64,000 bases of DNA, taken from a virus. The notes under the pieces were generated by a model, which had not been told where the DNA came from, ran no database searches, and saw only the letters and a list, made by a program, of their open reading frames with translations. The DNA is taken from the UHGV virus genome UHGV-1362809; one strand, given 5' to 3'. Position numbers and translations under genes: made by a program. Positions 19,969 to 41,173 of this stretch are shown here, in pieces (position 1 is the first letter of the stretch; every line of letters begins with the position of its first letter).

Positions 19969-21180
19969 TTAGTCCCAATCATCATCGTCATCTTCGTCGT
20001 CTTTACGTTTTGATTTTTTCGACTTCTTTTTGGGTTTTTCGTCTTCGTCTTCATCGTCGTCAAAGTCATCAAAGTCGTCATCATCTTCGTCGTCTTCGTC
20101 GTCTTCGTCGTGCTTCGATGGCTTCTTCTTTTTCTTTACAGGTTTTTCGTCCTCATCATCGTCATCATCATCGTCGCCACGTTTTGACTTTTTCTTTTTT
20201 GACGGTTTTTCGTCCTCGTCTTCATCATCATCGAAGTCTTCATCGTCAGAGTCCTCGTCATCCGATTCATCTTCCTCTTCATCATCTTCGTCATATTTTT
20301 TCTTCTTAGACTTTGGCTCATCAAAGTCCTCCACGTCATCGTCGTCATCAAAGGACTTCTTTTTCGACTTCTTTTTGGGCTTTTCGTCTTCTTCGTCGTC
20401 TTCATAATCAACGGAATCAACATCTTCATCTTCGTTTGTAACCGCAACCTGTTTAAGTTTTTTATATTCTTCCTTAGCTTCCGCCAATGTTTCCATAGGA
20501 ATATTATCAATATCAAAAATAAGATACTTACGTTCTTCCTTTGTCAATGGAGTCACTTTTAAGGAGTCAACACGATATTTAGATTCACCCGCTTTTTCAG
20601 GATTATATCTAATAGAAATATCCATACCATATTTTACGTCATTGACATCATGGCATTCCCCATCGTCACCCGTATTATTAGCACCTAAGTCTTTCAATTC
20701 CTGAACAACACCATAGGGGAGATTTAAAACTACAACAGGTGTCCACGAACTCGATTTAGGATCCTTAATATAGCACTTATAGTCCTCAAAAATAGTTTTA
20801 CGTTGTTCTTCTTTTTCGGTACGGGTAACCTTTTTAGGCTCTTTTTCCTGTTCACGCCTAAAAATAGCGTTCACAAGGTACTTACGACCAGCTTTCGGGT
20901 TTAGATTACAGTATGGGCAATTATTATCAGCAAAGCTATCCGTATCAGCGTCATAGTTAAGACACAACTTAGGGATATTAGCGTGCTTTCCGCTTTTAGT
21001 GTTAATTTCAATCCAGTGAGTCGAATAACCACGAATCGGTCCCAGCAGTCTAAAAACTAACTTTTCACCTGCATAATCGCCAAAGTTAAAAAATGAGATG
21101 TCGCCAAGTATTCTTTTACGTTCACCCGACTGGCGAACTTGGCTAAAGCCTTTCAAACCTTTCATAACATAATTCTCCAA
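19969..21180 (-). CDS. gp32-like single-stranded DNA-binding protein with extended acidic C-terminal tail
   Basis: His/Cys zinc site HWIEIN...C..NNCPYC as in T4 gp32 (His-Cys3). About 170-aa Asp/Glu tail punctuated by KKKSKK blocks. Sits directly upstream of the recombinase. Confidence 0.45.
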   Translation of the reverse strand: MENYVMKGLKGFSQVRQSGERKRILGDISFFNFGDYAGEKLVFRLLGPIRGYSTHWIEINTKSGKHANIPKLCLNYDADTDSFADNNCPYCNLNPKAGRKYLVNAIFRREQEKEPKKVTRTEKEEQRKTIFEDYKCYIKDPKSSSWTPVVVLNLPYGVVQELKDLGANNTGDDGECHDVNDVKYGMDISIRYNPEKAGESKYRVDSLKVTPLTKEERKYLIFDIDNIPMETLAEAKEEYKKLKQVAVTNEDEDVDSVDYEDDEEDEKPKKKSKKKSFDDDDDVEDFDEPKSKKKKYDEDDEEEDESDDEDSDDEDFDDDEDEDEKPSKKKKSKRGDDDDDDDEDEKPVKKKKKPSKHDEDDEDDEDDDDFDDFDDDEDEDEKPKKKSKKSKRKDDEDDDDDWD

Positions 21181-21204: not shown

Positions 21205-22119
21205 TTATAAATATTCATTCAAACCAAGAACCTCAAGAGCAAACCCAACGTCCTTTATATTTTTTACCTTAGATATAAAAGTCTTAACATCTATGTTTTC
21301 ATCAGTAGTGTTTGCCTCCATAGGAACTTGTTTTGCCGCTTCATCAATTTCATAAGCAAAGTTATTTATACCTAAGTCCTTACCTTTACTTATATCCAAT
21401 TTTAGTGTTTTATTTATCGAATAAGAACTACCATATTCATAGTCAAATCCAGGATTCAATAAATAGTGCTTAAACTGCCACTGTATAAAAGACGACAAAG
21501 ACCCCTTATCTTCTCTATACTTATCAATACCAGATGAAATCGCAATAACCATTGTCTTAAACAGGTCGTCAATATCTATCTGTGTATGGGAACACATATT
21601 ATACCTAGATATAGTCTGCTTATATGCTAACAAATAATACTTTTGCATTACCTTTTCTTTAAAAGCTAAGTACAGCTTTTGATAAGTCAATGCTTTCAAA
21701 TAAGTAATACCTGCGTATTTAATGGAACAGTCTATTTTATCTAACTGTCGTTTATTTATTGCTCCTTCACTTTCTTGTTCGTCATAGTTTTTTAAATAGT
21801 CCAAAAACAGACATAACAATCTGAAAGATATAGTGCGCTCCATTTTTGAAGTTTTATAGCTATCAAAACAACTTTTATTAGGAGACACAATCGTATTATA
21901 CAAACAACATATAACACCCTTTTTATCTAAGGTAGATAACTTCCTCCTTTTGTTAGCCTGTAGCTGAGACATAATATTAGCACAACACCGTTTTCCTAAA
22001 TTAGTTTTAGAAAAAATACCTTCAATAGCACTATTTAAAAAGGTGTCTAGTACTTCTACAACCTGACCACCAGTTAAGTTCTCCATTTGAGGCAATTTTA
22101 GTATTGTTTGTATATCCAA
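21205..22119 (-). CDS. hypothetical protein
   Basis: 304-aa ORF. Confidence 0.4.
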   Translation of the reverse strand: MDIQTILKLPQMENLTGGQVVEVLDTFLNSAIEGIFSKTNLGKRCCANIMSQLQANKRRKLSTLDKKGVICCLYNTIVSPNKSCFDSYKTSKMERTISFRLLCLFLDYLKNYDEQESEGAINKRQLDKIDCSIKYAGITYLKALTYQKLYLAFKEKVMQKYYLLAYKQTISRYNMCSHTQIDIDDLFKTMVIAISSGIDKYREDKGSLSSFIQWQFKHYLLNPGFDYEYGSSYSINKTLKLDISKGKDLGINNFAYEIDEAAKQVPMEANTTDENIDVKTFISKVKNIKDVGFALEVLGLNEYL

Positions 22120-23565: not shown

Positions 23566-23982
23566 CTATAATTTTTTAACAATTAAATATTTAAGGGCTA
23601 CTATTAAATGTTTGCAAACACCTATTTTATACTTCGGATTACGCACATCTGGCAAAGCATCTTCTGCATAAATAACATCAGCGGCATTACGCATCGCTTG
23701 AGATACTTCAAAAGTGTAAATCCAACGTCCACAATCACAGGAGGTTTTTATATAAGTACATTGTGAAAGGGGACCGATGTAATTAGGTTCGTCCGTATAA
23801 ATTCTGCATTGATGTATATGAAAAGACCCATCAGACTGTAAAGACCTAACAATAAATTTATACCCGTTGTTTCCGTCTTTAAAAACCTTTTCGATAGCAA
23901 CACTTCTAGACCTAATTATATCAGGCTTCCAACAGTAGTGCAGTATTTGGAGTGGTGACAAATGTTGCAACAATTTAGACAT
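23566..23982 (-). CDS. hypothetical protein
   Basis: 138-aa ORF. Confidence 0.4.
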   Translation of the reverse strand: MSKLLQHLSPLQILHYCWKPDIIRSRSVAIEKVFKDGNNGYKFIVRSLQSDGSFHIHQCRIYTDEPNYIGPLSQCTYIKTSCDCGRWIYTFEVSQAMRNAADVIYAEDALPDVRNPKYKIGVCKHLIVALKYLIVKKL

Positions 23983-24009
23983 AATAACACCTTACTTAAA
24001 ATTATTAGA

Positions 24010-24537
24010 CTAACCTAACTTAGTAGCCTTACAATATAAATCTCCATTTACCTGTATATAGGAATCTAAGTCTTCCCAGTCTACTATATAGTCAGATAAA
24101 TCTTCTTCCTTAATGTCTTTTTCTGAGTGTAGGTTGTAGCTGCAAACAGAATTACCAGAAGAATAAGTACTATTAGGGTCTCCTGTCTTTAAAGGATGCC
24201 AATCGGGAAGGTCGTATCCTTTGTATAATAAATAATAGGCACAGCTAAAAAAGTAGGAATCCGACTGTTTGCGTAAATCCTCTAAATCCACTTTTTCACA
24301 CTGATTATTTTTGAATCTATCCGCATATATTTCACATCTACCAGTATGCAAGTTCAAATGAGAGCAAGCCACAGTTGTTGGGTAAAACTTTTTTTTCTTA
24401 ACCCTACACAAACAGCATCTTCCGCATCCACTACAAATGGCTTCCCATTCTTTTTTATTAAAGTCTTTAAGTGGTTTCAGCTTCCAAAAGTTAGGAGATA
24501 CACCTAACTTAGCGGCATAGTCCTCAACTTTGCTCAT
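24010..24537 (-). CDS. YkgJ/UPF0153-like Zn/Fe-chelating CxxCxxCC-domain protein
   Basis: CSGCGRCCLC motif. Confidence 0.4.
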   Translation of the reverse strand: MSKVEDYAAKLGVSPNFWKLKPLKDFNKKEWEAICSGCGRCCLCRVKKKKFYPTTVACSHLNLHTGRCEIYADRFKNNQCEKVDLEDLRKQSDSYFFSCAYYLLYKGYDLPDWHPLKTGDPNSTYSSGNSVCSYNLHSEKDIKEEDLSDYIVDWEDLDSYIQVNGDLYCKATKLG

Positions 24538-25481
24538 TTATATTTCTCCAAAATTGGATTCATAAATTCGTCCATTTCGTCTGCGGACACATCATTTAAC
24601 GTATATAGATCAATAAATTCATGAGCTAAATCTTTTTTGTATAAACCAAGAGCATCACCATTCCAACCGAGATCTAATGAATTATAATTATTAGACTGAT
24701 AGAAAAAGTAATTTATTGCCCAATACTGTGCCGAGGAAACCAACCCATAAGGTTTGTATTTTTCATCATGAGATAAAGCAATAATACCACAAGAGCCCGT
24801 ACCTCCAATATCTCCAATTTGCATCGCACAAACTACTTTATTTGTTTCCAAATCAGTAGCATACACTATACCAAAAGTATCATCTTCAAGATTCCACGTA
24901 TCGCTACAGGTATTCCAATTCGATTGAGGTTTATCAGAAACGGACATAATATGCTCGCAGTGCTCTGTCCATAGCCCGCAAATTTGGTCTTTTAATTGCT
25001 CATACTCAGGCGAATAAACTCTACAGAAATCCCATTTTACTTGTTTAGACTTAGCTCCAAACAAAATAGAAACATAGGATTTTCTATGCTTTCGCATATA
25101 AGCTTCAAAAGTATCGCAATCCTTATACACAACGGGGGAACCACAATAGCCAGAATATAAAACAAATTTATCTTCATCTGGTATCATAGCAAAAAAAGTT
25201 TTATTGACAGACAAGTTAGTACTATATGGCGGTTCAAAAAAGTATGCTCCCCTTTCATTCTTTCTAAGAATTAAAGGTATTTTATACTCCCCTGCTTCAT
25301 AGTAAAACACACACTCCTGAAAAGGTAAAAATACGTTCCAAAACTTTTTTATAGCATCACAGTTATCCGTAGAAATATAATGCAAATAGTTGGAAATAAA
25401 ACCGTCTGACCAACCTACAAAATTCTTTAAACTTGCACGGCAGTCTTTAATGCTACCAAGTTTAATATGATTTATAACCAT
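24534..25481 (-). CDS. hypothetical protein (modification island)
   Basis: 315-aa ORF, 4-nt overlaps on both sides. Confidence 0.4.
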   Translation of the reverse strand: MVINHIKLGSIKDCRASLKNFVGWSDGFISNYLHYISTDNCDAIKKFWNVFLPFQECVFYYEAGEYKIPLILRKNERGAYFFEPPYSTNLSVNKTFFAMIPDEDKFVLYSGYCGSPVVYKDCDTFEAYMRKHRKSYVSILFGAKSKQVKWDFCRVYSPEYEQLKDQICGLWTEHCEHIMSVSDKPQSNWNTCSDTWNLEDDTFGIVYATDLETNKVVCAMQIGDIGGTGSCGIIALSHDEKYKPYGLVSSAQYWAINYFFYQSNNYNSLDLGWNGDALGLYKKDLAHEFIDLYTLNDVSADEMDEFMNPILEKYK

Positions 25482-26783
25482 TTAACCCTCTACGAAAAAC
25501 TGTTCTGGTTCTACCCAATTACATCCAATATCTTTACGATATTGCAACAAGAATGTTTTTATCTTTTTGATACTCTTGTATGCTTTTTCTTTTGACTTTT
25601 CAAAATCTTTATCATAGCCAACAATATAAGCTTGACGGTCTTCCATCCGATGGTACAACCTGCCATTTTTAGAATATTCTGCTTTCATAGGCATACAATT
25701 TTTATCAGCACCCAAAATAACAAACTTATTGCTTGTAGGCAAAATATTATTATAAATCATTTGAGAACAACAAGTTCCTGAATTAAGACATACGCAAGTA
25801 TAATAACCCTCTTTTACTTTTACTTTTTTCAAACCTGCCATATCAGCATATAGGTCTCCATAATTTGAGCAAATATAAGGAGCAACAAACTGCGTTGGAA
25901 ATCCCTCACGACAGGTAAACTCCATAAACATAGGAGCTCCCTTACTTGGTTTTATACAGTTGAGATCAATATACCCCCTATAATCATTTTCTATTAAATA
26001 AGATTCAAGCCTATTTAAAATCTTATCTACTGCTTTAGGAACCTTATTTCTTTTAACCAGTTTAAATACAGTACCGACTTCACCAGTCAAGATATTAGAA
26101 GTATCCCCTTCCAATAACTGCTTGTATTCTTGGTCAAAAACGACTACATTCCCTACCCAGCCTGTACCGTTAAAATATCCACCGACACATAATTCTTTAC
26201 CATTAATTTTCTTTTCAAGAATACAGGACTTATTTTTTAGATAAGATAAAGAATCTTCATGAATAATATCTAAAGCTTCCTCTTTACTAAAAGGAATATA
26301 GGTGCAGCACTTAGGAGAATTTGATTTAAAAACGACGTCCTTGTGCTTTTTAATAAAGGCTTCCAACTGTCCTATATCTAAGGTATCAATATTAGGAGTC
26401 GCTTTAACACCAAAATCCTCACACATACTTTTACCAAAAGGTCTATCTTCTTCAAGGTCATATACTTTATTCGTGTGAAGATTTATGTTCGGGACATTAT
26501 ATTTTTTAGAAAGATCTACATATTTTTTATAGTTCTTTTCATAATAGTCCTTTTGAGCATTAAAAACTACAAAGTCCGAATTTTTGTATAATCCCTCTAA
26601 ATCTCCATTGTACAAAGTAGTATTAGGATTGGAGCAAATAAAGTCGTCTGACTGCTCTTTTGTATCACAAAAATACAAGTTCAATTTATGACCGCTATCC
26701 AAAAAACTTTTTTGGAGCCCTTGTAAATTTAAAAAGTCTACATATCCAATATTAAAACCCATTTTTTTATTTCCTATGCGCAT
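25482..26783 (-). CDS. putative ATP-grasp-like ligase
   Basis: 433 aa; ILEKKINGKELCVGGYFNG and EGDTSNILTGEVGT segments resemble ATP-grasp central and C-terminal regions; weak. Confidence 0.3.
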   Translation of the reverse strand: MRIGNKKMGFNIGYVDFLNLQGLQKSFLDSGHKLNLYFCDTKEQSDDFICSNPNTTLYNGDLEGLYKNSDFVVFNAQKDYYEKNYKKYVDLSKKYNVPNINLHTNKVYDLEEDRPFGKSMCEDFGVKATPNIDTLDIGQLEAFIKKHKDVVFKSNSPKCCTYIPFSKEEALDIIHEDSLSYLKNKSCILEKKINGKELCVGGYFNGTGWVGNVVVFDQEYKQLLEGDTSNILTGEVGTVFKLVKRNKVPKAVDKILNRLESYLIENDYRGYIDLNCIKPSKGAPMFMEFTCREGFPTQFVAPYICSNYGDLYADMAGLKKVKVKEGYYTCVCLNSGTCCSQMIYNNILPTSNKFVILGADKNCMPMKAEYSKNGRLYHRMEDRQAYIVGYDKDFEKSKEKAYKSIKKIKTFLLQYRKDIGCNWVEPEQFFVEG

Positions 26784-27499
26784 TTGTGTAAAATAGGACT
26801 TAACATATAGTCCAAAACACTAATGTCCTTTTTAGTAAGATTGTTTATTTCAGAAATCTCTATAACCCCTACCCTATCTAAATCCAAAGAGGCTAAAAAG
26901 TTTTTTATTTTTTTAGGCGATAAACCATTTTCCACATTGTAATGACATGACCTATAAAACTTAGGGTCTAATGCGTCTACGTCAATACTTATACAAATTT
27001 TTTCGTCCTTAGGAATATCCCCAAACCCACAGATACTCAAGTTTTTAAGATTAGATGTTTCCTTAAAATCCGTACTTCTTGTACCTATTGCATATACCTT
27101 ATTTACAGGATACGAAACTAAAGATACAACATCTGGGTCTCCGACATGCCCTAAACAAGCTAAACCCATGCCATGTTCTTTTTTAGAAGGGGAAGTATCC
27201 CAAGTATTAGCATCTAAGTGTGCGTCTATATAAACAACATTAGGATACTCTTTCAAATAAGGAGCTAAAACTGCAACATTGAGACAATGATTAGACGTAA
27301 AGTACACATTGGGAAGGTCACCTCTCGGTGACACTTCCTTAAATGTATCCTTCAACACACCATACCAGTTATGGTCTTTTAATCTATCCTTAGGATCAAC
27401 GTCATAGGTATAAACCCCTCCTATATGACTAACATATTTGGACACCGACGTATCACAAGGATATTTTCCACCGTACTTACAGTACAATCCTTTAATCAT
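26774..27499 (-). CDS. ureohydrolase-family enzyme (arginase/agmatinase/formiminoglutamase fold)
   Basis: VVYIDAHLDANTWDT (DAHxD) and CISIDVDALDP (SxDxDxxDP) manganese-binding signatures. Confidence 0.5.
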   Translation of the reverse strand: MIKGLYCKYGGKYPCDTSVSKYVSHIGGVYTYDVDPKDRLKDHNWYGVLKDTFKEVSPRGDLPNVYFTSNHCLNVAVLAPYLKEYPNVVYIDAHLDANTWDTSPSKKEHGMGLACLGHVGDPDVVSLVSYPVNKVYAIGTRSTDFKETSNLKNLSICGFGDIPKDEKICISIDVDALDPKFYRSCHYNVENGLSPKKIKNFLASLDLDRVGVIEISEINNLTKKDISVLDYMLSPILHKCA

Positions 27500-28977
27500 T
27501 TAACGTCCTCAAAAAAGTAATGTTCATATTCCTGAACTTCTTTCAAATGATTAATATGAAAGGCGGTTTGCCTTAACTGACAAGGACCGCAGTTACCACA
27601 AGGCTTATCATGGTCACGGTAGCAACTCCAAGTAAGGTGCAAAGGAGCTCCAATTTCCATACCAAGCTTTACAATTTCGTGCTTAACTAAGTTTTCCAAA
27701 CTTGATCTAATAACAGGTTTACTATGACAACCTAATGCCAGCACTTCATTAAATTTGTGCATAAATACAGTCTGGTTATCTCTATAAGCCCCTGCTTCTT
27801 CAAGGTTTAAACCGAGATAAATATTACCAATATTATATCTATCACAATAGGACGCAATCAAACCGATAAAAGCAGTATTACGAGCGGGAACCCAGTCAAT
27901 ATCCTTTTCTGAACCTTCCACAGGCTTACCAATGTCAGAATCATTACCATCAACAATAGTTGAGCCACCAAGATTTTTAATAAAGGATAAATCCATAAAC
28001 TCGCACTTGATTGTTTTTGTAGGGAATTTATCTTGCAGGTATTTGGTAATGTTTTTTACACATTCCACTTCTTTCTTTTCTGCACGACATCCATACAAAA
28101 AGTGCGCTAATGTTATTTCTTTGTATTGAGGGTCTTGACAGGCTAACGTAGCTGAAACGGTCGAATCTAAACCACCTGAACAAATTACGATAGCTTTACT
28201 TTGTGATTTCTTATAAGACTCTTCCTCCACTCCATAAAAAGGCTCTGTCGTATGTCCCTCAGCGGTCAAAACAATATGAGTAAAAGGATTAAAAGTAACA
28301 TGATTATACTTGTAGTTCTTCAACTCCGGCTCAATAAATTCAGACAAGGACGTAAAAATATAACAGTCAAAGTCATAAATATAGTACAGTTCGATTGGAG
28401 CAAAGTTTTTGTACAAGTGAAGGCTTAACTGCTTATCGTCGGTATTAAATAGTGCAGTAGCAATAGCTCCATCTAACTCATTCATTCGATTGTGGTAGGC
28501 ACAATAAGGAATCGCATAGGAATCAATAGATGTAGGAACCTCTACGCCTTTTAAAAGCTGCTTATCGTTGCAAATTGTACCATTATGCACAGCCCAAACT
28601 GTCTTATAATTGTAGGGCTGAATGTCTGCTTTTGAAACTTTGTCTAAACATTCCGTTGTAGGTTCAGCTCTAAAATTGCAAATGATAATACGGGATAAAT
28701 AGTCCAAAGAAATATTTTTATCTATCAACCGATGCAAGTACTTCTCTTTTTCAATTCTGCTACTACCAACAGGGATAGCTTCCTTTGTAGCAAAATGACC
28801 GTCTTCTACTTTGAAACTGTCATAGGATACAAAACCAAAACCGTCCACACCACGTTTAGTACTATTACGCAGAACTGCTTTAAAAAGCAGTTCTAATCGG
28901 TAGCGTTCTTCATCATTTATATCACGGGTTAGATAAACACCATTAATACTGCACATAGTAGTTCCTCTCTTACACAA
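27496..28977 (-). CDS. Gat-QueC fusion: class-II (Ntn) glutamine amidotransferase fused to QueC-like PP-loop ATPase
   Basis: N-terminal MCSINGVY (Ntn Cys2); PP-loop IVICSGGLDST; C-terminal QueC zinc motif WSCYRDHDKPCGNCGPCQLR. Confidence 0.65.
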   Translation of the reverse strand: MCKRGTTMCSINGVYLTRDINDEERYRLELLFKAVLRNSTKRGVDGFGFVSYDSFKVEDGHFATKEAIPVGSSRIEKEKYLHRLIDKNISLDYLSRIIICNFRAEPTTECLDKVSKADIQPYNYKTVWAVHNGTICNDKQLLKGVEVPTSIDSYAIPYCAYHNRMNELDGAIATALFNTDDKQLSLHLYKNFAPIELYYIYDFDCYIFTSLSEFIEPELKNYKYNHVTFNPFTHIVLTAEGHTTEPFYGVEEESYKKSQSKAIVICSGGLDSTVSATLACQDPQYKEITLAHFLYGCRAEKKEVECVKNITKYLQDKFPTKTIKCEFMDLSFIKNLGGSTIVDGNDSDIGKPVEGSEKDIDWVPARNTAFIGLIASYCDRYNIGNIYLGLNLEEAGAYRDNQTVFMHKFNEVLALGCHSKPVIRSSLENLVKHEIVKLGMEIGAPLHLTWSCYRDHDKPCGNCGPCQLRQTAFHINHLKEVQEYEHYFFEDVK

Positions 28978-29998
28978 TACCCATAAATTTGTACATATTA
29001 GCTACACAAGTGCTAACAATATTAGCCATAGGGTAGTCACCTCTAAATTCTGTGCTAATAATTTTGTCTAGTTCTTCATTGTTAGAATAACAGTTTAGAG
29101 GATATAATTCTTTATAACAGGGCATATCATTAAGTACTGGTATAGCCCCACTCAAATAGCCTTCTAAAATAGAATAGCCGAATGTTTCCAATACTGAGTC
29201 TGCCCATATATATTTTACATAACCCAATTTATCATAGTAATCTGCTTTATCTTTTGTAGGAACACATTCTATTAAATTAGGGTCTACTCCATTGTCTAAA
29301 CAAGTTTTAGTAACAGAGTCTCTAATGTTTTTATTGGGACTAAAAACAATAAATTTAAGATCCGACCCCATTTCTTTATATCGCTTTGCCTGTTTTACAA
29401 AGGAGTCAGGTCTTTTATCATCCGCCCAACGATGACAAAATACAATCGTATTTTGCTTATTAGGATGATTTTTAATAACAGATAAGTCTAATGGAAGCCC
29501 AGTCACTTTAATCTTATCTGCAATGGATTTATCACCAACTAATTCAGGCGTTATGCACATATCTTTCATATAATTGGTAGCTACTACCAAACCATCTACA
29601 TATTTTAACAAGTGAGTTTGAAAATCTACTGCCCAATCAGACCCATAAAGATAGTCCCCCGCTGTAATAGGGCTTGAGTGCCAAATACCATAATTTTTAA
29701 CTTTGATGTGCTTGGACGTACAGTAATGAAACAGAGATGTAAGAGCGGGATTCCAAAGGTCGCACCAAAATAGTATATCTCCATCCTTAATTTGGTCAAT
29801 AACTGTCTGAGTAACTTTTAAATAATAACGAGCCAGAACTTCATCATTATACACGGCACCAACTTGCGGAACTGGATATACTCCGTCAGAAATATAGCTA
29901 TAAGGGATATTATTATCCATAGCATATTTAACGATATCTCTTGTAATAGTTATTTCTGGTCTACCCTCAAACAATGGGGCTGCAATAATTCTTAACAT
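28970..29998 (-). CDS. GT-B-fold glycosyltransferase (GT4-like)
   Basis: ETFGYSILEGYLSGAIPVLND matches the E-x7-E donor-binding motif. Confidence 0.4.
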   Translation of the reverse strand: MLRIIAAPLFEGRPEITITRDIVKYAMDNNIPYSYISDGVYPVPQVGAVYNDEVLARYYLKVTQTVIDQIKDGDILFWCDLWNPALTSLFHYCTSKHIKVKNYGIWHSSPITAGDYLYGSDWAVDFQTHLLKYVDGLVVATNYMKDMCITPELVGDKSIADKIKVTGLPLDLSVIKNHPNKQNTIVFCHRWADDKRPDSFVKQAKRYKEMGSDLKFIVFSPNKNIRDSVTKTCLDNGVDPNLIECVPTKDKADYYDKLGYVKYIWADSVLETFGYSILEGYLSGAIPVLNDMPCYKELYPLNCYSNNEELDKIISTEFRGDYPMANIVSTCVANMYKFMGIV

Positions 29999-30010
29999 AT
30001 ATTTTCCTTC

Positions 30011-30958
30011 CTAACCTACTAATGGAATTGAACTAAACACATCATTATTTACAACATCAAAACCTGACTTGTATCTAAACTCTGGATTCCAAATTTGTTT
30101 ATAATCTAACCACCCTATACCCAAGTTTAAAGGCATATTCCACTTTTTGTCGTATATATTTTTTAAGGCGTGCATTATCAGACAATTACCAAGTGCGTCT
30201 TTTTCATACACAGCATCTGTATTTCTTTTTGTTTGAATCCAATAAAGTTCGTCTACATACCTAATAAAATAAGCTACCGCAATTAGCTTATTCCCATCAT
30301 AAATTGAACAGGTATAAACTTGACCACAATCTGCTAAGCAGTATAGGTAGTCCATTTCAAAGTCCCAACTTTTAATGTCTCCTTTTGAAGCCCAGTAGGA
30401 ATAATAATAGGGATTTAAGTCAGCTTCTGCATACAACAAGTCTTTTGAATTGAATACCTGTTTAAAGTCGAATTTAAACTTATTAATAGTCTTTTTATAC
30501 TGTCTATATATTCTATGTAGCTCTTTACTATGCGTTTCAAAGCTGTCTCTTAAAGTAATTACTACCTCAGGACGGGCTTCTTTATTTACGGCTAACCCAA
30601 AAGCACCAACGTAAGGCTCACACTGTTTGTATATAAACTCTTGATTGGGAATATTTAAATCCATTGGCAGTGTACAAAACAGGCTACCGTCTTCTTCTCT
30701 TTTTTGAATAAAAATAGGAAGGGCAAATTCTTTATCTTCGTCCAACAAAACCAAAGGGTCGCTTTGCACATAAGAAGATATAAGATTACCACAGGATGGA
30801 CATCTAAGTTTATTCAAACAAAAACAATTATAATATAAAAAAACACTACCCTCAAAAACACCGCCAGAAAACAGACGTTCAAAATATTTCAATGCTTTGG
30901 AATTAAAATTTGCTAATTTTACAGGTTGCATAGTAGTCCTCTTAGTAAGCAATAACAC
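30011..30958 (-). CDS. hypothetical protein (modification island)
   Basis: 315-aa ORF. Confidence 0.4.
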   Translation of the reverse strand: MLLLTKRTTMQPVKLANFNSKALKYFERLFSGGVFEGSVFLYYNCFCLNKLRCPSCGNLISSYVQSDPLVLLDEDKEFALPIFIQKREEDGSLFCTLPMDLNIPNQEFIYKQCEPYVGAFGLAVNKEARPEVVITLRDSFETHSKELHRIYRQYKKTINKFKFDFKQVFNSKDLLYAEADLNPYYYSYWASKGDIKSWDFEMDYLYCLADCGQVYTCSIYDGNKLIAVAYFIRYVDELYWIQTKRNTDAVYEKDALGNCLIMHALKNIYDKKWNMPLNLGIGWLDYKQIWNPEFRYKSGFDVVNNDVFSSIPLVG

Positions 30959-31883
30959 TCTTACCGTGTCTAGCTAGTTCCTTACAAATACCTTCAAAAT
31001 TGGGATTAATTTTAGCTAATTCATAGCATAAATGTTTATCCTTTAACATGATCCCTTTCAACCAAGTACGAGGTATATTTAATGAGTCCTTATAATCGAA
31101 AAATAACCCAAAGTCTACGGACTTACATCCTAATTTGTACCCCAACCTTACTGCTTCCTGATGTCCTACAACATAGCACCTATGCTTTTTTCTTAATGAT
31201 TCGTTCTCTGTAATCAAAATAAAAGGACCGAAGCATTCTTTTTCATTATTTGTATATGCAATAAATGTAAGTACTTCTTCATTAACAACTTTATCCATAG
31301 CTCTTATAATATAAACTTTATTACCATGTTTAATGTTATAAATAGTCTTAAAGTTTGAAACAAAAGATTCAACGGAAGTATCGGGGTATTGCTTTTGTTT
31401 TAACTGAAACAAGGGAACTAAGGTTTGTACGAAATCATCTAATTGCTTACTATTTTCCTGTATGATAAATTCCTGTACAGAAATATCTAAGTCGTTAAAT
31501 TTAGCTCCTTTTATATAGCTACTTTTACACGGAATACCTTTCTGCCAATCCTCAAAAGAAATATTTGTTAAATCTAATTTAGCAATAGGTGTAGAATCTA
31601 TACATTCAAATTCTGTATTGTTTTCCAACAGCTTAGTTATTACTTCGTGTTTATCTATTAGCTCATCAAACAACAAAAACGTCATAGGCTCCCCAGTAAG
31701 GCAGTCTACACCGAAGTAATAAACAAGCAAGTCTATATCATCACAAATGTAGTACAAAGTTTGATATTTTTCATCTAACTCTTTAAGAGAAGCTTGTTGG
31801 TCTTCATACTTTAGATTGTAGGTATGCTCAAACTTTTGTTTAACATCGTTATTTAAGTCTTCAAAAAATTTATGCAAAGCCAT
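30942..31883 (-). CDS. hypothetical protein (modification island)
   Basis: 313-aa ORF. Confidence 0.4.
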   Translation of the reverse strand: MALHKFFEDLNNDVKQKFEHTYNLKYEDQQASLKELDEKYQTLYYICDDIDLLVYYFGVDCLTGEPMTFLLFDELIDKHEVITKLLENNTEFECIDSTPIAKLDLTNISFEDWQKGIPCKSSYIKGAKFNDLDISVQEFIIQENSKQLDDFVQTLVPLFQLKQKQYPDTSVESFVSNFKTIYNIKHGNKVYIIRAMDKVVNEEVLTFIAYTNNEKECFGPFILITENESLRKKHRCYVVGHQEAVRLGYKLGCKSVDFGLFFDYKDSLNIPRTWLKGIMLKDKHLCYELAKINPNFEGICKELARHGKSVIAY

Positions 31884-31885
31884 TT

Positions 31886-32410
31886 TTACACCATCCTTGA
31901 ATAAGTCTGCACCGTAGTATCAAAGGAATCTACAACCCAAGATTGACTCTTATAATGACTTTTGATAACTTCAGCCATTGAGTCACCTTGAATAATAATA
32001 TCTGCTCCCTTTATACCATACCCAAAAACAAATAGATTCGGTACAAGAGTTTTACAGGTTTTAATTATACTGCCGACCTGCTTATGGTGGGGATGACCAT
32101 ACTCTCCAAACTCGTTATGGGATAACACCACATCATAGCACATACATAGGTCTTTAATTTGACGAATCAGTTGTTCGCTATCCCAACTGCTAATATGAGA
32201 TTCAAAATCGTTAGGGTTATCTTCGTGTTCTAAATTTAAAGCATACACCTTGCGTTTTTGAATAAAGGACTGAAAGCTATTCAGTTCTTCTAATCTTTCA
32301 GGAGTAGCTGAACAGGTAACAATATCCCAATCAAAGTTAAAAGTCTTTTCAAAATTTACACCGAACACGGCATCATCATCAGGATGTGCTATAATCATAC
32401 ATGCTTTCAT
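31886..32410 (-). CDS. LmbE/PIG-L-family deacetylase
   Basis: MIIAHPDDDAVFG matches the AHPDDE motif. Confidence 0.5.
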   Translation of the reverse strand: MKACMIIAHPDDDAVFGVNFEKTFNFDWDIVTCSATPERLEELNSFQSFIQKRKVYALNLEHEDNPNDFESHISSWDSEQLIRQIKDLCMCYDVVLSHNEFGEYGHPHHKQVGSIIKTCKTLVPNLFVFGYGIKGADIIIQGDSMAEVIKSHYKSQSWVVDSFDTTVQTYSRMV

Positions 32411-32418
32411 TTAATTCC

Positions 32419-33231
32419 TCAATTCACAGGTAAATCCATTATGTCTTTCACAAGCATATTAATACTTGCGTAATCCACAGAATTTTTACCTTCGTTATAC
32501 AGAATATCTAACAACTGCCAGTCGAACAAATCATTCCACCTAAGCACTACGTTGTTATTTACAATAGTAACAGGAGTATCCCGTGTTATATCATTCTCCT
32601 GTAAAGGAGCAACCTTATCGAAATAGCCAAAAGTTATATGCGCATGGTCTGAAAAGAATACGTCATAAACCATATTATCTGTAAGTTTTTCTACTCTAAT
32701 GGGAGTACGGTTTCCACTTTTTAGCATAGATATACAATGACCAGCTAAATCCCAACAGGTGTCTTCAAAAGTATTAACCCAGTCTGGTTTATGAGAGTGA
32801 CATTCGCATACTGAATTAACGTCTATGTACTTTAATGTAGGATGATAAGTCCATTCATAGCCAACAAAAAGAGTAAAAGCATACGGTTTAAACTCGATAG
32901 TTCTACCGCAAGGTTTTTCACACAGCACCTTACCAGTATAGCCACACCTTTGCAGACTATCTAAATAATGAATATGATAATCCGTAGGACAACATATAAT
33001 AACAAGGTCGGGGCTATCATTTACGAGATGTCTTATACTATCATATTTTGTAGGGGTTTCAGGAATATATACACCCTCTTCAATATCAGCCCATTTGTTT
33101 AATACATAGTCCCCCTTAGATAAAACAGTATCCGATGTATCATAGTACCCGATAAAATCGTTACCTGTTCTGACAATAGAACAAATATGAGCACTACCGA
33201 TGTTGAAAGCCCCTATTACAGAAATTCTCAT
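32419..33231 (-). CDS. Gfo/Idh/MocA-family NAD(P)-dependent oxidoreductase
   Basis: MRISVIGAFNIGSAH Rossmann start; DLVIICCPTDYHIHYLDSLQRCGYTGKVLCEKP matches the family's consensus-domain EKP motif. Confidence 0.5.
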   Translation of the reverse strand: MRISVIGAFNIGSAHICSIVRTGNDFIGYYDTSDTVLSKGDYVLNKWADIEEGVYIPETPTKYDSIRHLVNDSPDLVIICCPTDYHIHYLDSLQRCGYTGKVLCEKPCGRTIEFKPYAFTLFVGYEWTYHPTLKYIDVNSVCECHSHKPDWVNTFEDTCWDLAGHCISMLKSGNRTPIRVEKLTDNMVYDVFFSDHAHITFGYFDKVAPLQENDITRDTPVTIVNNNVVLRWNDLFDWQLLDILYNEGKNSVDYASINMLVKDIMDLPVN

Positions 33232-33241
33232 ACTACCCCTC

Positions 33242-34672
33242 TCACTTGTTGACCTTGAAAGTTTCCTTCATATTAGGATTATGATATTTATCCAGTACCT
33301 CTTTAATTCTATCCTTATGTTCATTAACATAAGAATACAAAGTATCTGTACTATCGTCTACTAAGGAACCCATAGTAGCGGATGAAAAAATACCTTGTGA
33401 GAAATACGGTTTAAATCTAGTGTCCGCTTTTTGCAAACCGTCATTCATATAACTCTCAACATAATCCAGCCCTAAAGAACATACGTTTTTACCGCTGTGG
33501 GTGCCGAGCATTTTTAAAATAACGGCTCTATAATCCTTAAAAGACAAATTTCTACTCAAAGTTGCTATAGACATCAAAGTTCTATAAATCTCTGAAATAT
33601 TATGTATTGTCAAACAGCGAATAACTGGATTAGATAACATGAAACTAAACACATCCATATATTTAACTAATCTACAAACAGCACATTGACAACACATTAA
33701 TCTATTGGGATTAAAAAACGAAAGATTGTTATGAATACTGCCAATTTGCAACCGTTCCGGAGACCTATTAAACTCTCTCTGCAAATGATACATACCTGAT
33801 CTTGCACTTTGCAAAGGAGTGCTTGAATCTGACGTAATCATTATATCGGGAAACTCATTTTCTGCTAAATATATGAAGGACGCCAAAATAGCAGGATTAT
33901 AAATTCCCAAAATATGAAAATGCTTATAACGGTCCTTATAATTAGATACAATCTGAATAAAGCTAGATATACACCCTACAATAGTAGAAGACGTATTCAA
34001 ACCCCCGATACAAAGTCTATCAATTCTATCATCATCCACAATATCTAAGTATCTTTTATATTTATCAGGCTCATACCCGTGGCAAACATTGATAAGCTCA
34101 ACACTACCGTCCAAGTTATCAATCAGTTTATTTGTATTCTGACGCTGTGTTTTTGCTGCATAAGTAAGAGTACTAATATCAATATTGTTATAGAGAGGTA
34201 TATCTAGCACAATACCCAAGTCAGCATTTTTATTATAAAAATTAGCTAAGTTAGCGGTATCAATATAATCTACTCTTCCAACCGCAACCTGATAACCGCC
34301 CGAATCACAAACAATTTTCAACCGATTAGGGTCTTTACCTTTTTTACAGCTCTGAGCTGACTTACTAAATTTACCATAGTTAGCTACATAGTTTATCATA
34401 GCTATTTCAGGATAGTCGATATTATCTGAAGTTTTATGAAAGGGAGAAATAGGAAGACATTCATCCCAGTCATAAATTTTGGTATGACTTAGTTTATCAG
34501 AGTCTTGTGTAAAAGTCAAGATACGGTCAGGTAATTGTAACTGCAAAATACGGGAATTTTGTTTGAGCACTTTCATAGTGTTTCCAAAATTCCCATACTT
34601 AACATATAAGGTTGTAGGAGCTTCTTGAGATGTGTCAAGCCCAGCCGGAATGTAAGAAAACATTTTTATCAC
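33242..34672 (-). CDS. dpdA: DpdA-like tRNA-guanine-transglycosylase-family protein (DNA 7-deazaguanine transglycosylase candidate)
   Basis: IVCDSGGYQVA (TGT DSGGFQ motif); zinc subdomain CCQCAVC...H. Confidence 0.6.
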   Translation of the reverse strand: MIKMFSYIPAGLDTSQEAPTTLYVKYGNFGNTMKVLKQNSRILQLQLPDRILTFTQDSDKLSHTKIYDWDECLPISPFHKTSDNIDYPEIAMINYVANYGKFSKSAQSCKKGKDPNRLKIVCDSGGYQVAVGRVDYIDTANLANFYNKNADLGIVLDIPLYNNIDISTLTYAAKTQRQNTNKLIDNLDGSVELINVCHGYEPDKYKRYLDIVDDDRIDRLCIGGLNTSSTIVGCISSFIQIVSNYKDRYKHFHILGIYNPAILASFIYLAENEFPDIMITSDSSTPLQSARSGMYHLQREFNRSPERLQIGSIHNNLSFFNPNRLMCCQCAVCRLVKYMDVFSFMLSNPVIRCLTIHNISEIYRTLMSIATLSRNLSFKDYRAVILKMLGTHSGKNVCSLGLDYVESYMNDGLQKADTRFKPYFSQGIFSSATMGSLVDDSTDTLYSYVNEHKDRIKEVLDKYHNPNMKETFKVNK

Positions 34673-34698
34673 CTTTGATTATTAGTATTATATAACAT

Positions 34699-34833
34699 TT
34701 ACAACATACCTTTAGAAAAGCGTTTAGCTTTTCTATACTTATCTAACCAGTGTTGTACTTGATCTAAATTCCAAGATTCAATGTATCTAAGACCGTTTTG
34801 TTTAGCAACTTTGTTCTTTAATGGAACCTTTAC
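34699..34833 (-). pseudogene. decayed remnant of a Vsr-like homing endonuclease gene (last ~45 codons only)
   Basis: VKVPLKNKVAKQNGLRYIESWNLDQVQHWLDKYRKAKRFSKGML aligns to the C-terminus of the 10928..12118 and 3593..4837 proteins; the rest of the ORF is unrelated. Confidence 0.4.
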
Positions 34834-34906
34834 AGTCCATATTTCGTCTAAATACAAAAATAGAGGTAAGCCCCATCCATAAATGATGGTAGGGCTTACC
34901 ACAAAA

Positions 34907-35599
34907 TTACATAGTAAAACAAGAAGTTTTAATATTCTGAACCTGCGTATAAAATCTCTGTTCCATTGAAGCTTCCTCAAAGTAGCCACGAACTACTGTA
35001 GAGGAAGTAAGTCCATTACTTAATACCCCACGACAAGCCATACATCCATGACGACCAATTACCATAACAGCGGAACCATCACTGTCTATGCCTTCCAGCC
35101 AACTATTACCCTTATAAAGAACATCTGCTAAATTACGAGCATACTCTTCCTGCAACATAGGAAATTTAGGAATTTCACGAGCAATACGAGTCAATTTACT
35201 AAGTCCCAGTACCTTAGGAGCCTTCTTATTAGGAATGTAGCTTACATAAACTTCATAATTGACGGGCAAAAAATGATGTGGACATAAACCAATTACAGCT
35301 TCTTTAATGGACTGTGTAACGATTCCAGGATCGTACTGGGTAGGCTCCACTTGAAAGGTCTTCAAAAATCGTTTGCAGTTTTCAGCAATTTCAGTTTTAG
35401 GACGACACATATCAGCGAAAGCTTTTGCAGAACGCAGGTCAGATCCTGCAAAGTTAGCCATTTCGGCTCCTTCAAACTGACCTCCCGCGCACACTTGTTC
35501 AATCCATTTCTGTTTCAAACGATAAGACTCATCTAACAAAGTCATATCCAACTGGTCTCTATTTACTGTTGCCATTTTCATTTTCTCCAAAATGTACAA
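34907..35599 (-). CDS. folE: GTP cyclohydrolase I (FolE)
   Basis: GLCPHHFLP and VIGRHGCMACRGV signatures; VLGLSKLTRIA. Confidence 0.75.
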   Translation of the reverse strand: MYILEKMKMATVNRDQLDMTLLDESYRLKQKWIEQVCAGGQFEGAEMANFAGSDLRSAKAFADMCRPKTEIAENCKRFLKTFQVEPTQYDPGIVTQSIKEAVIGLCPHHFLPVNYEVYVSYIPNKKAPKVLGLSKLTRIAREIPKFPMLQEEYARNLADVLYKGNSWLEGIDSDGSAVMVIGRHGCMACRGVLSNGLTSSTVVRGYFEEASMEQRFYTQVQNIKTSCFTM

Positions 35600-36296
35600 T
35601 CTTGTTGTTTAATAGCCTATAATCATTAAACAACCATTTAATAAAGCTTACAGGGTATTCTTTTGTACCATAGCTATTATAGTTCACACCTTTCCCCTGC
35701 TGTTTAAAACTATACAATAATTTACAACATTTAACAAAGTCTTTTTTACTCTTAATAAGACCAAAAAACCGTTTCAATAAATATCTGTCAAAGGAATTTT
35801 TTACATATTCTTCATAGCCTATCTTATAATTCCCTGCAAACCAGTTGTTGTATAGTTTTAAAAGAAATTCTGCTCTTTTATCGCCTATACTGGAACAGTC
35901 TAATAGATAAAATAGTTCTCTTCCTATTTTACCTTTTGGACGATACCCTACAAAATTAGGCAAATAATCAATATTATACTGCTTATCCTTTGCAACAATG
36001 TTTATGTCTTCATAGTGAAAAGGAATAGATACATAACTGCTAAACTTATTAACCTTACAGTCAACAATAGGACATCCAATCTCTGTTAAAAACAAAACAT
36101 TGTCAAATAAGACAATAGTGCTTTTTGATTTAGATAGTAGGTCAAAGCACTTGAAAAAAGTATTAGCACAAGGACATAATAGATAATCAGAATCTTTTAT
36201 CTTTTTACCTTTGATTATACCAACCTTCTTTCCGTGTTCTTTTAAAGCTAAATAAACATCAGCTACGCTATTATTGCATATACCTACGAGCTTCAT
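35559..36296 (-). CDS. hypothetical protein
   Basis: 245-aa ORF. Confidence 0.4.
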   Translation of the reverse strand: MKLVGICNNSVADVYLALKEHGKKVGIIKGKKIKDSDYLLCPCANTFFKCFDLLSKSKSTIVLFDNVLFLTEIGCPIVDCKVNKFSSYVSIPFHYEDINIVAKDKQYNIDYLPNFVGYRPKGKIGRELFYLLDCSSIGDKRAEFLLKLYNNWFAGNYKIGYEEYVKNSFDRYLLKRFFGLIKSKKDFVKCCKLLYSFKQQGKGVNYNSYGTKEYPVSFIKWLFNDYRLLNNKIVHFGENENGNSK

Positions 36297-36859
36297 TTTT
36301 TACCTCTTATATGATTAATCAATTTTTGCAGCCTAATAGATGTATCCACTTTATACTTGGTTTGGATACTTGAGGCTTTAGATGCAAATTTAGATAAATC
36401 TAATGTATTGGTGGTAACATAATCTAACAAGTTTCTTTCTATAAAAGTTTCCCAACCTTTACTGTATACAGCTCTTCCACGGCAAACATCATAATAAATA
36501 GATTGATTAGTAAATAGACATGCCTTTAATAAATTGTCTACTTTTATTTCAAATCCATAGTCCGTCAAATTTTTAGACTGGTCTAAATACCACAAATCAT
36601 ATTTATTAATACCGTCTGAAAAGCGTGTACCACCAAAGTTATTTACAGTAGTGGAATACTTAGATAGTAGCCAATTTATAGAAGCCTTATCTTTACACTC
36701 TATAACTAAGTCTAAGTCTACATATTTTTTACCTGTAAGAATAGAGGTAACACAGTCTCCATACATATATACGTTGGTACAGTATTTTGTAAGATACCTT
36801 ATAAAGTCTATGCTACAAGTACGGCACATAAGAGAGTTCCAATTTTGAAGAATCTTCAT
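36293..36859 (-). CDS. hypothetical protein
   Basis: 188-aa ORF. Confidence 0.4.
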   Translation of the reverse strand: MKILQNWNSLMCRTCSIDFIRYLTKYCTNVYMYGDCVTSILTGKKYVDLDLVIECKDKASINWLLSKYSTTVNNFGGTRFSDGINKYDLWYLDQSKNLTDYGFEIKVDNLLKACLFTNQSIYYDVCRGRAVYSKGWETFIERNLLDYVTTNTLDLSKFASKASSIQTKYKVDTSIRLQKLINHIRGKK

Positions 36860-38577: not shown

Positions 38578-38789
38578 TTTTAACTCCTAAAAAATACAAG
38601 TCAACTAATGTATATTTACACCATCGAAAAATTCATAATATTGGAAATTTCAAGACAAAAAATACCCCGCCAAAGGGGGGGTGCCGCGCAATGGGGGGGT
38701 TTATTATCCGAACAAAGAGAGGATATACGTGGATAAAATCCACGGCAATGCAAGACATAGAAATAGGCGTTTTAAAAGAAGAGTTACAT

Positions 38790-41112: not shown

Positions 41113-41138
41113 GGGTTGGTGATAAATGTCACCAACCC
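41113..41138 (-). terminator. hairpin downstream of minus-strand gene 41174..41818 (weak T-run)
   Basis: GGGTTGGTGA..TCACCAACCC stem. Confidence 0.3.
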
Positions 41139-41173
41139 ATAATATAAATTATTTACACCACTAATATAAATTA

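Follow-up and report, generated by a model that had tools for sequence, protein, structure and literature searches.

Why would a phage encode a glycosyltransferase, a deacetylase and a ligase in the same block as genes for 7-deazaguanine? The question is raised by a 64,000-nucleotide stretch of the virus genome UHGV-1362809 (hereafter the window), in which genes for FolE, for a DpdA-like member of the tRNA-guanine transglycosylase (TGT) superfamily and for a Gat-QueC fusion lie among enzymes of sugar and amide chemistry (Table 1). A first-pass annotation, made by a model from the letters alone, had proposed here a candidate deazaguanine hypermodification pathway with sugar and amide tailoring. 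Co-occurrence of the genes elsewhere, a cassette slot shared by sister phages and a negative literature search support this proposal as a hypothesis. We judge it somewhat probable that the locus combines a 7-deazaguanine core with an exchangeable tailoring cassette and yields a glycosylated/aminoacylated deazaguanine in DNA, where both the DNA target and the final structure are what we purely infer.

A predicted 7-deazaguanine core

FolE catalyses the first step toward 7-deazaguanines. The window FolE carries the CPHH and HGCMACRG signatures noticed at first reading, and a clear Pfam match confirms its identity. It is 86% identical to its counterpart in L003, a sister-phage locus, and 49% identical to that in L005, and lies outside the exchanged block described below.

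The TGT-like protein is far more diverged. As a single sequence it has no Pfam match, an empty PDB search and NCBIfam tgt, arcTGT and DpdA matches of merely about 5e-3. A profile of 12 sequences matched arcTGT (1iq8, 4.2e-10), DpdA (7ui4, 5.8e-4) and bacterial TGT (about 4e-3) in the PDB, and the aspartates of catalysis and base binding (D123, D157 and D282) and the zinc ligands (C328, C330, C333 and H357) are invariant in the 12 homologs, down to 24% identity. The call of a DpdA-like TGT with a DSGGYQ motif and a zinc site is thereby borne out; by sequence, the product is a TGT superfamily member and a predicted base-exchange enzyme.

Its nearest relatives point to a separate clade. Searches with tblastn returned only TGT-domain proteins of jumbo phages at 23-30% identity and no 9g-like, Cellulophaga or Campylobacter phage; the NCBIfam DpdA model scored 15 bits against a cut-off of 200, and the DpdA of phage ACP17 matched the profile of the window clade at merely 2e-5. 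Judged by NCBIfam, tblastn and profile searches, with no direct profile comparison with reference DpdA3 or DpdA4 sequences, the protein belongs to a jumbo-phage clade that is unassignable to DpdA1-4 by sequence. Identity of the clade with DpdA3 was considered but gained no support, Cellulophaga and Campylobacter phages being absent from the tblastn matches of both the window and the L020 TGT-like queries. Relatives at 26-30% identity stand in jumbo phages in synteny with sigma factor, single-stranded-DNA-binding protein (SSB) and UvsX genes, and closer ones, at 74%, 53% and 46% identity, are located on metagenomic contigs.

The TGT-like gene is clustered with other 7-deazaguanine genes: in the window it stands between FolE on its upstream side and Gat-QueC on its downstream side, and in L003, L005 and L007 it has QueC-like genes downstream. 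The fusion of a class II glutamine amidotransferase to QueC, recognised at first from its MCSI and SGGLDS motifs, is upheld by its family matches and by complete invariance of M8, C9, S267-S272 (SGGLDS) and the C-terminal cysteines C452, C460, C463 and C466 among homologs. Because Met8 and Cys9 are invariant, the true start is probably the ATG at 28956, which gives MCSI. The protein is 30-37% identical to viral Gat-QueCs and is the sole PHROGs match among the ten island proteins.

No QueD or QueE turned up among the six-frame open reading frames (ORFs) of the window when phmmer and hmmsearch were run with phage queries, namely five QueE-like sequences, two of QueD and two others that resemble 6-pyruvoyltetrahydropterin synthase (from L030 and ACP17), and Pfam searches of neighbouring ORFs gave neither, in agreement with the earlier reading. 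Both could be encoded elsewhere in the phage genome of about 234 kb.

A swappable cassette downstream of FolE and TGT

The tailoring genes form a block that is exchanged between sister phages. In a blastn comparison with L003, the window is 90% identical over 43000-34847 and 75% over 34777-33360, shows no similarity over 33359-24007, and is 85% identical from 24006 downward. The L003 flanks encode proteins 90-99% identical to those of the window, with 85-90% identity of the DNA. Since all nucleotide similarity to L003 ends there, we set the cassette limits at 24007-33359, a block of ten minus-strand genes downstream of FolE-TGT. The same cassette is 99% identical in L094-L097. As a near-identical sister phage has entirely different DNA in this slot, we regard the island as a swappable cassette.

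The first-pass annotation had drawn an island from 24534 to 35599. The island is real and all its genes lie at the positions given, tightly packed on the minus strand, but its boundary does not hold: the exchanged block ends at 24007 and 33359 and includes the gene of a 175-aa protein, which is absent from L003. The CxxCxxCC motif (CSGCGRCC) attributed to the island is indeed present, in this last cassette gene just outside the island start first proposed.

Four enzyme sets occupy the same slot directly downstream of FolE-TGT, each with a QueC-type enzyme. L003 carries QueC, a QueC-like paralog, an Amidoligase_2 protein, a member of a rare phage family that we call family X, two unknowns and a radical-SAM enzyme resembling lysine-2,3-aminomutase (KamA). 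L005 has two QueC-like genes, three family X paralogs, a PurD-like ATP-grasp ligase (27-30% identical to that of the window), an unknown and the aminomutase. L007 has MetK, a methyltransferase, QueC, three family X paralogs, unknowns and the aminomutase. Family X is the sole tailoring family common to all four variants. The distant jumbo phages GR11A and Illi-2 show the order TGT, sigma, SSB, UvsX without a cassette, and in L011, a relative further removed, NrdG/NrdD come after FolE and TGT, and a cassette is missing there too. Because sister phages swap the cassette for QueC-like/amidoligase/KamA-like/family X sets, the lineage most plausibly diversifies its DNA base to evade restriction and modification-dependent nucleases.

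Between cassette variants the TGT-like protein is 74% identical, more diverged than the backbone. A pocket adapted to each cassette was considered as the cause and discarded, for the divergence sits in the last 120 residues, at the C-terminus, where identity is 44-62%, compared with 75-90% for the core. With the divergence concentrated beside the recombination junction, no co-adaptation to substrate can be read from it.

Intergenic spacing is -17 to +13 nt throughout the block, except for a gap of 234 nt between FolE and TGT (34673-34906, with a 96-aa ORF at 34699-34989). This gap is a site of presence/absence polymorphism: otherwise 99%-identical contigs carry in it a gene of 506-512 aa with a DUF7487 domain (positions in Table 1), while the window and L096 keep a short remnant homologous to the end of that gene. 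The DUF7487 gene looks like a mobile, homing-endonuclease-like insertion. Divergence also has a local hotspot outside the exchanged block: the 245-aa protein encoded upstream of FolE shares only 55% identity with its equivalent in L003, against 81-99% for the products of neighbouring genes. Because it is unusually diverged between cassette variants, the protein may, tentatively, be tied to the modification system.

Glycosyltransferase genes recur beside deazaguanine genes

If the cassette enzymes act with the core, they should keep company with it elsewhere, and the first-pass annotation had named failure of the accessory ORFs to co-occur with DpdA in related phages as an observation that would refute it. 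What we found is that the glycosyltransferase of family 4 (GT4), the Gfo/Idh/MocA oxidoreductase (Gfo) and the PIG-L deacetylase recur beside Gat-QueC and/or the TGT-like gene in unrelated backbones. Among 80 viral loci retrieved from IMG/VR with the TGT profile, 56 have a same-strand GT4 homolog, detected by profile, within 0-5.5 kb of the TGT-like gene, and in 15 the two genes abut. Counted by TGT clusters, GT4 stands beside TGT in 11 of 24 at 60% identity and in 4 of 13 at 40%. For comparison, among the 80 best viral loci of Gat-QueC, most of them 9g-like, this GT4 is present in only 4. Accordingly, GT4 is not specific to the island but a partner found widely with TGT genes of this clade.

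The association extends to a subset of Gat-QueC loci. Three of the four GT4-bearing control loci have a contiguous GatQueC-Gfo-GT4 order, with FolE directly before it in two; L111 and L113 have the contiguous order FolE-GatQueC-Gfo-GT4, and L132 has GatQueC-Gfo-GT4. Gfo homologs also adjoin Gat-QueC and GT4 in L030, L088 and L090. In addition, L088 (a phage with PolA) has a CxxCxxCC protein, an ATE_C-like protein and a GNAT; L090 has QueD, FolE and a QueE-like gene; L030 has DpdA and a NADAR protein. In L091 Gat-QueC and GT4 flank a PIG-L homolog, and the gene directly upstream of GT4 encodes a homolog of the cassette's 315-aa GNAT-like protein (29% identity, E 3e-26). PIG-L, the arginase-like protein, ATP-grasp and family X were found in none of the 80 ordinary Gat-QueC loci.

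Cultured phages show the same pairing. In ACP17 a GT4 gene lies between the DpdA gene and a gene for 127 aa, inside a QueD-FolE-...-QueE cluster; in BCSR5 GT4 abuts the TGT-like gene, with FolE and QueE nearby; in PA5oct the two are about 0.7 kb apart. Xanthomonas X1/BUDD also carries the pair. The virion DNA of PA5oct resists restriction at G-containing sites, the base chemistry being unidentified in the source (PMC12191111).

Two further neighbours were seen. The NADAR protein of L030 (14024-14563), a possible ADP-ribosyl-guanine hydrolase, is encoded between Gat-QueC and Gfo. In L020, a gene resembling hypoxanthine phosphoribosyltransferase (5114-5620) adjoins FolE, which would fit nucleotide-level (pre-replicative) handling of a deazaguanine base.

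Predicted enzymes of the cassette

The ureohydrolase, GT-B glycosyltransferase, LmbE-type deacetylase, Gfo/Idh/MocA and ATP-grasp assignments made from motifs all gained Pfam, profile or structure matches. For GT4, a family profile matched GtfA (7e-7) and also WbaZ and TarM in the PDB; R190 and K195, the Arg/Lys pair that binds phosphate, are invariant in the family, and E271 and E279 of the EX7E motif are conserved. Its AlphaFold2 model (mean predicted local confidence, pLDDT, 90.7) gave Foldseek matches to GlgM, BshA, MshA, SenB and PimA at 1e-10 to 1e-11. The nearest viral models were the TGT-adjacent protein of ACP17 and a 370-aa protein, the same length as the GT4 of BCSR5. An N-acetylhexosamine (HexNAc) donor is suggested by the co-encoded PIG-L enzyme and by the GlcNAc-using matches (BshA, MshA, GtfA, TarM).

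The PIG-L protein is short, has both motifs for zinc binding (AHPDDD and HPHH) and scores 28.4 bits, just over the Pfam cut-off of 28.2. The arginase-like protein finds its best PDB match in N-omega-hydroxy-L-arginine amidinohydrolase (7euq, 3e-9), followed by arginases. The PurD-like ligase scores far under the equivalog cut-off of TIGR purD and matches PurD (2xcl, 2e-7) over residues 110-423. Pfam CxxCxxCC is faint in the 175-aa protein (E 0.32).

Five ORFs had been listed as without motif. At least one, family X, is probably an aminoacyl-tRNA-dependent transferase. A single-sequence query found family X in just 24 clusters among 1.84 billion representatives, and its profile has no match among PDB sequences. 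The fold of its model resembles, at low confidence, aminoacyl-tRNA-dependent transferases (MprF, FemX, ATE1) and the tandem-GNAT enzyme MshD, so that the protein is, on this modelled structure, a candidate tandem-GNAT transferase of that kind. The 313-aa protein is possibly a distant relative: aligned to the family X profile with hhalign, it shares GAK and DxG..YK over 164 columns, a weak match (E 0.012). A relation of family X to the 315-aa GNAT-like ORF at 30011-30958 was looked for with hhalign and dropped, as nothing was found.

A proposed pathway and its weak points

In the pathway we propose, FolE would supply more dihydroneopterin triphosphate (H2NTP), which host or distal QueD and QueE would convert to 7-carboxy-7-deazaguanine (CDG). 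Gat-QueC would make preQ0 and/or the amidine G+ from CDG, and the TGT/DpdA-like enzyme would exchange guanine in phage DNA for the deazaguanine. These predicted core steps are supported by homology and precedent; in phage 9g, Gat-QueC together with DpdA is enough for dG+ (PMC6884629). That DNA is the substrate of the TGT-like enzyme we infer by analogy, the cues being its location in a replication module and the restriction resistance of PA5oct DNA.

The tailoring steps would be these. GT4 would move a hexose or HexNAc from a UDP-sugar to the deazaguanine side chain, with the base either free or already in DNA; the Gfo-type enzyme would oxidise or reduce the added sugar; and the PIG-L deacetylase would expose its amine. 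This amine would then be acylated with one or more amino acids by the PurD-like ligase together with between one and three transferases of the FemX/MprF type (family X and perhaps the 313-aa and 315-aa proteins), and the arginase-like enzyme might trim a guanidino group, for example from arginyl to ornithyl. The first-pass annotation had likened this logic to mycothiol and bacillithiol synthesis, a comparison that gains support from BshA and MshA among the GT4 structural matches and MshD among those of family X.

Several observations weigh against this proposal. The best solved relative of the TGT-like protein is arcTGT, a tRNA enzyme, and DNA specificity is assumed from phage precedent. CDG, preQ0 and G+ offer no obvious acceptor hydroxyl for a sugar. 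The window contains no QueD or QueE. Around L088, L090 and L091, no TGT-like gene was detected within 8-20 kb, and the arginase-like, PurD-like and family X genes were not seen beside deazaguanine genes outside this lineage. The family X model has an overall pLDDT of 57, with a well-predicted core. Finally, the characterised DpdA3 phages phiST and CP220 gave no tblastn match to the GT4 query; as they fully replace G, GT4 is not needed for base exchange as such.

Alternative explanations

The alternative that survives best, which we nonetheless think unlikely, is that the DNA holds only a known product, dG+ (or dPreQ0/dADG), and that the enzymes of sugar and amide chemistry work on something else, for instance a glycoside of a pterin or other small molecule, remodelling of the cell envelope or another auxiliary metabolic task. 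The 9g precedent shows that Gat-QueC and DpdA alone give dG+, large phages and giant viruses commonly encode GT4 enzymes, and a GT4 that glucosylates tetrahydrobiopterin, a FolE-derived pterin, stands at rank 44 of the GT4 structural matches; the lack of an obvious sugar acceptor on known deazaguanine side chains speaks in the same direction. An unrelated role would not lead one to expect that GT4 is specifically enriched beside the TGT clade and a subset of Gat-QueC genes, often in overlapping frames and in unrelated backbones, nor that sister phages fill the same slot with QueC-like ligases. Moreover, family scans of the cassette revealed no flippase, polymerase or lipid-carrier genes of the envelope-glycan type.

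We also give little credence to a target other than DNA, in which the elaborated base would enter tRNA, as archaeosine and queuosine do, or be attached to protein, as in type IV CBASS (cyclic-oligonucleotide-based antiphage signalling) with Cap9 and Cap10. The closeness to arcTGT (4e-10, compared with 6e-4 for DpdA) counts in favour of such a target, and the QueC-like Cap9 and TGT-like Cap10 do modify a protein N-terminus with TGT catalytic geometry kept; the two QueC-like genes of sister cassettes recall that system. Nevertheless, phage TGT homologs with published experiments act on DNA (PMC6884629, PMC10516641), the gene is located in a replication/recombination module with UvsX, SSB and PolB, and the related PA5oct enzyme goes with G-specific restriction resistance of virion DNA. 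General Pfam, PHROGs and NCBIfam scans of the window ORFs gave no CD-NTase-like family, and the window has no tRNA gene.

That the sugars go onto another base, such as a hydroxymethyl-pyrimidine as in T-even phages, with deazaguanine as a separate second modification, is very improbable. In its favour, glycosylation of 5-hydroxymethylcytosine (5hmC) by GT-B enzymes of phages is well established, the GT4 structural matches include a cyanophage S-TIM5 protein annotated as "DNA alpha-GT", and PA5oct is reported to have several DNA-modification systems. Against it, the scanned window ORFs include no thymidylate-synthase-like hydroxymethylase, TET/JBP dioxygenase or 5-hydroxymethyluracil kinase, and GT4 recurs in linkage with TGT and Gat-QueC rather than with genes that modify pyrimidines.

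Genomic setting of the island

The window represents 64 kb of the replication/recombination module of the phage genome, and every substantial ORF between about 17.1 and 38.6 kb is on the minus strand (Table 1). The G+C fraction is even over the island and its flanks (0.32-0.36), and scans of the window for tRNA genes and Rfam families found none. At 99% identity, the region occurs again on a metagenomic contig of 234 kb and on further contigs, and the window TGT-like protein was read on 17 contigs; megablast found no DNA-level match to the island among GenBank phages.

Table 1. Features of the window and DUF7487 genes in related contigs
Feature	Position	Strand	Evidence or remark
PolB	12971-15883		replication module
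UvsX-like recombinase	17096-19912	minus	
gp32-like SSB	19969-21180	minus	
Sigma factor	21205-22119	minus	
CxxCxxCC (YkgJ/YcgN-like) Cys-rich protein, 175 aa	24010-24537	minus	CSGCGRCC; last cassette gene
Family X, 315 aa, rare phage family	24534-25481	minus	
PurD-like ATP-grasp (carboxylate-amine) ligase	25482-26783	minus	GARS_A 1.3e-8, GARS_C, TIGR purD 7e-19
Arginase-family ureohydrolase, 241 aa	26774-27499	minus	Pfam Arginase 2e-14; DAHLD, DVDALDP; metal ligands kept
Gat-QueC, class II glutamine amidotransferase-QueC fusion	27496-28977	minus	QueC 3.7e-50, GATase_7 2.1e-5, phrog_10428 2e-82
GT4 (GT-B, retaining) glycosyltransferase	28970-29998	minus	Glycos_transf_1 1.5e-3 alone
315-aa protein, FemAB-type GNAT C-terminal half (weak assignment)	30011-30958	minus	Acetyltransf_6 3e-3, sub-cut-off
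313-aa protein	30942-31883	minus	no match in Pfam, PHROG or NCBIfam
PIG-L/LmbE metal-dependent de-N-acetylase, 174 aa (short)	31886-32410	minus	PF02585 2.6e-6; AHPDDD, HPHH
Gfo/Idh/MocA NAD(P) oxidoreductase, 270 aa	32419-33231	minus	Pfam GFO_IDH_MocA 1.3e-6; EKP
TGT-superfamily transglycosylase, DpdA-like, 476 aa	33242-34672	minus	DSGGYQ, TSDSST, CCQCAVC..H
FolE, GTP cyclohydrolase I	34907-35599	minus	PF01227 GTP_cyclohydroI 1.8e-22; CPHH, HGCMACRG
245-aa protein, no family match	35559-36296	minus	upstream of FolE
SbcCD-like genes	41819-45802		
Clamp loader	47005-48063		
DUF7487 gene, L094	8445-9965		
DUF7487 gene, L095/L097	8429-9967		
DUF7487 gene, L004	4942-6462		
DUF7487 gene, L005	8893-9999		

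Several neighbours of the island are unusual in their own right. The UvsX-like ORF encodes 938 aa, more than twice the usual size, with phrog_97 over residues 1-301 and phrog_9666, a family of unknown function, over 429-757; it may be a fusion or contain an inserted element. The gp32-like SSB ends in a C-terminal tail of about 150 residues made up nearly entirely of Asp/Glu runs that alternate with Lys-rich patches. Just downstream of PolB, a DUF7487-like ORF (12105-12875, Pfam 3e-3) lies beside a homing-endonuclease gene (10928-12118, phrog_3339), and a further phrog_3339 homing endonuclease is found at 3593-4837; the replication module carries many selfish elements.

Just after the cassette, a Cys/His-rich ORF of 138 aa is encoded at 23566-23982. 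The gene in this position in L005 (19574-20989) and L007 (15636 onward) encodes 471-491 aa and has a Pfam Intein_splicing match, and BLAST shows the intein-bearing gene of L005 to be a split homolog of the 138-aa ORF. An intein in so small a protein hints that the protein is perhaps functionally important. On the other side of the island, a 188-aa ORF (36293-36859) contains a stretch, GDCVTSILTGKKYVDLDL, that resembles by eye the head motif of CCA-adding/poly(A) polymerase-type nucleotidyltransferases; profile searches gave no match for this resemblance.

A stretch of about 2.6 kb (38578-41173) has no ORF of at least 90 aa except two short plus-strand ORFs, and the matching stretch is likewise gene-poor in L003 and L094. 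It contains the palindrome TGTTCTTTAGAACA three times, at 38818, 39053 and 39202, one copy with a single mismatch. A scan allowing up to two mismatches gave 6 matches where 1.5 are expected, a number reached in 0 of 100 shuffles. The stretch has no Rfam match and may be a regulatory or origin region.

Implications

The cassette suggests a wider picture, which we put forward tentatively and with rather more doubt than belief: that phages make a family of large deazaguanines bearing sugars and amino acids, in which GT4, often with Gfo, is an overlooked component (also in PA5oct, ACP17 and BCSR5), and in which, for the present jumbo lineage, exchangeable cassettes supply amino sugars as well as aminoacyl or peptidyl groups, these last attached by tRNA-dependent FemX-like transferases, and are swapped by recombination to change the chemical identity of G. 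To our knowledge, 7-deazaguanine modifications of DNA bear only small groups at C7 (nitrile, amide, amidine, aminomethyl, methyl/formyl derivatives, carboxyl or H). If true, the product would be the first hypermodified purine of a size similar to that of glucosyl-hydroxymethylcytosine or the thymidine hypermodifications, and its synthesis the first use of aminoacyl-tRNA for decorating DNA. It would also offer a possible identity for the G modification of PA5oct, and its enzymes would be new tools for site-specific DNA derivatisation. The predicted class is testable immediately in cultured phages. In addition, since the cassette swap would place different base chemistry on the same backbone, it makes the arms-race logic testable and provides natural controls for assigning enzymes.

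Comparison with known systems

The closest relative of the core is the dG+ system of phage 9g and the Seuratvirus group (FolE, QueD, QueE, Gat-QueC, DpdA1; PMC6884629). In both, FolE, Gat-QueC and a TGT-superfamily enzyme are clustered, and the 9g Gat-QueC has the same architecture and motifs as that of the window. However, the window lacks QueD and QueE, its transglycosylase belongs to a different, very divergent clade, and nine further enzymes are putatively co-transcribed with Gat-QueC; 76 of the 80 ordinary Gat-QueC loci have no GT4.

Tailoring of the deazaguanine has a precedent in the DpdA3 and DpdA4 systems, where DpdL, DpdM and DpdN lead to dDG, mdPreQ1 and fdPreQ1 (Cui et al. 2023, PMC10516641). 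As here, a distant TGT homolog, too diverged for Pfam, is combined with tailoring enzymes that vary the C7 substituent. Those enzymes make one-carbon changes (methyl, formyl, decarboxylation), whereas the window encodes enzymes of sugar, deacetylase, ligase and aminoacyl-transferase types, and Cui et al. never mention glycosyl or sugar. Deazaguanine systems in jumbo phages (Motura, PA5oct) are already known and were noted by Iyer et al. 2021. PA5oct, ACP17 and BCSR5 have a TGT-like clade member (in ACP17 its DpdA) and a GT4 homologous to the window pair, adjacent or within about 0.7 kb. Unlike the window, ACP17 and BCSR5 show no Gat-QueC, deacetylase, ligase or arginase within 8 kb on either side, as annotated. 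These pairs are a lead, not an explanation.

The order of enzyme types resembles mycothiol and bacillithiol synthesis, with MshA/BshA as GT4, MshB/BshB as LmbE, MshC/BshC as ligase and MshD as tandem GNAT. The similarity is at superfamily level only, with no NCBIfam equivalog match of the island proteins to MshA-D or BshA-C; the window ligase is PurD-like and not Cys-tRNA-synthetase-like, and the context is phage DNA metabolism. We use the resemblance as a working analogy, not as a claim of membership.

Amide ligation at a nucleobase carboxyl is known from two systems. CmoX/CmoY produce 5-carboxymethylcytosine-glycine (5cxmC-glycine), with CmoY ligating glycine to the carboxyl handle directly on DNA (PMC12783734), and the QueC-like Cap9 ligates CDG to an amine that is not ammonia, while the pocket of the TGT-like Cap10 accepts an N-substituted base (bioRxiv 10.1101/2025.04.06.647259). 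Both use ATP-dependent ligation; in the first the base is cytosine and in the second the target is protein, and neither comes with sugar enzymes or swappable cassettes. The setting also differs from type IV CBASS, since the window is the replication module of a lytic jumbo phage and its scans gave no CD-NTase-like family.

Searchable full-text literature to mid-2026 gave no description of sugar or aminoacyl tailoring of deazaguanine DNA. In sum, the core is a recognisable deazaguanine system, while the tailoring cassette, its exchangeability and the association of GT4 with TGT, and of GT4 and Gfo with Gat-QueC, appear to be undescribed.

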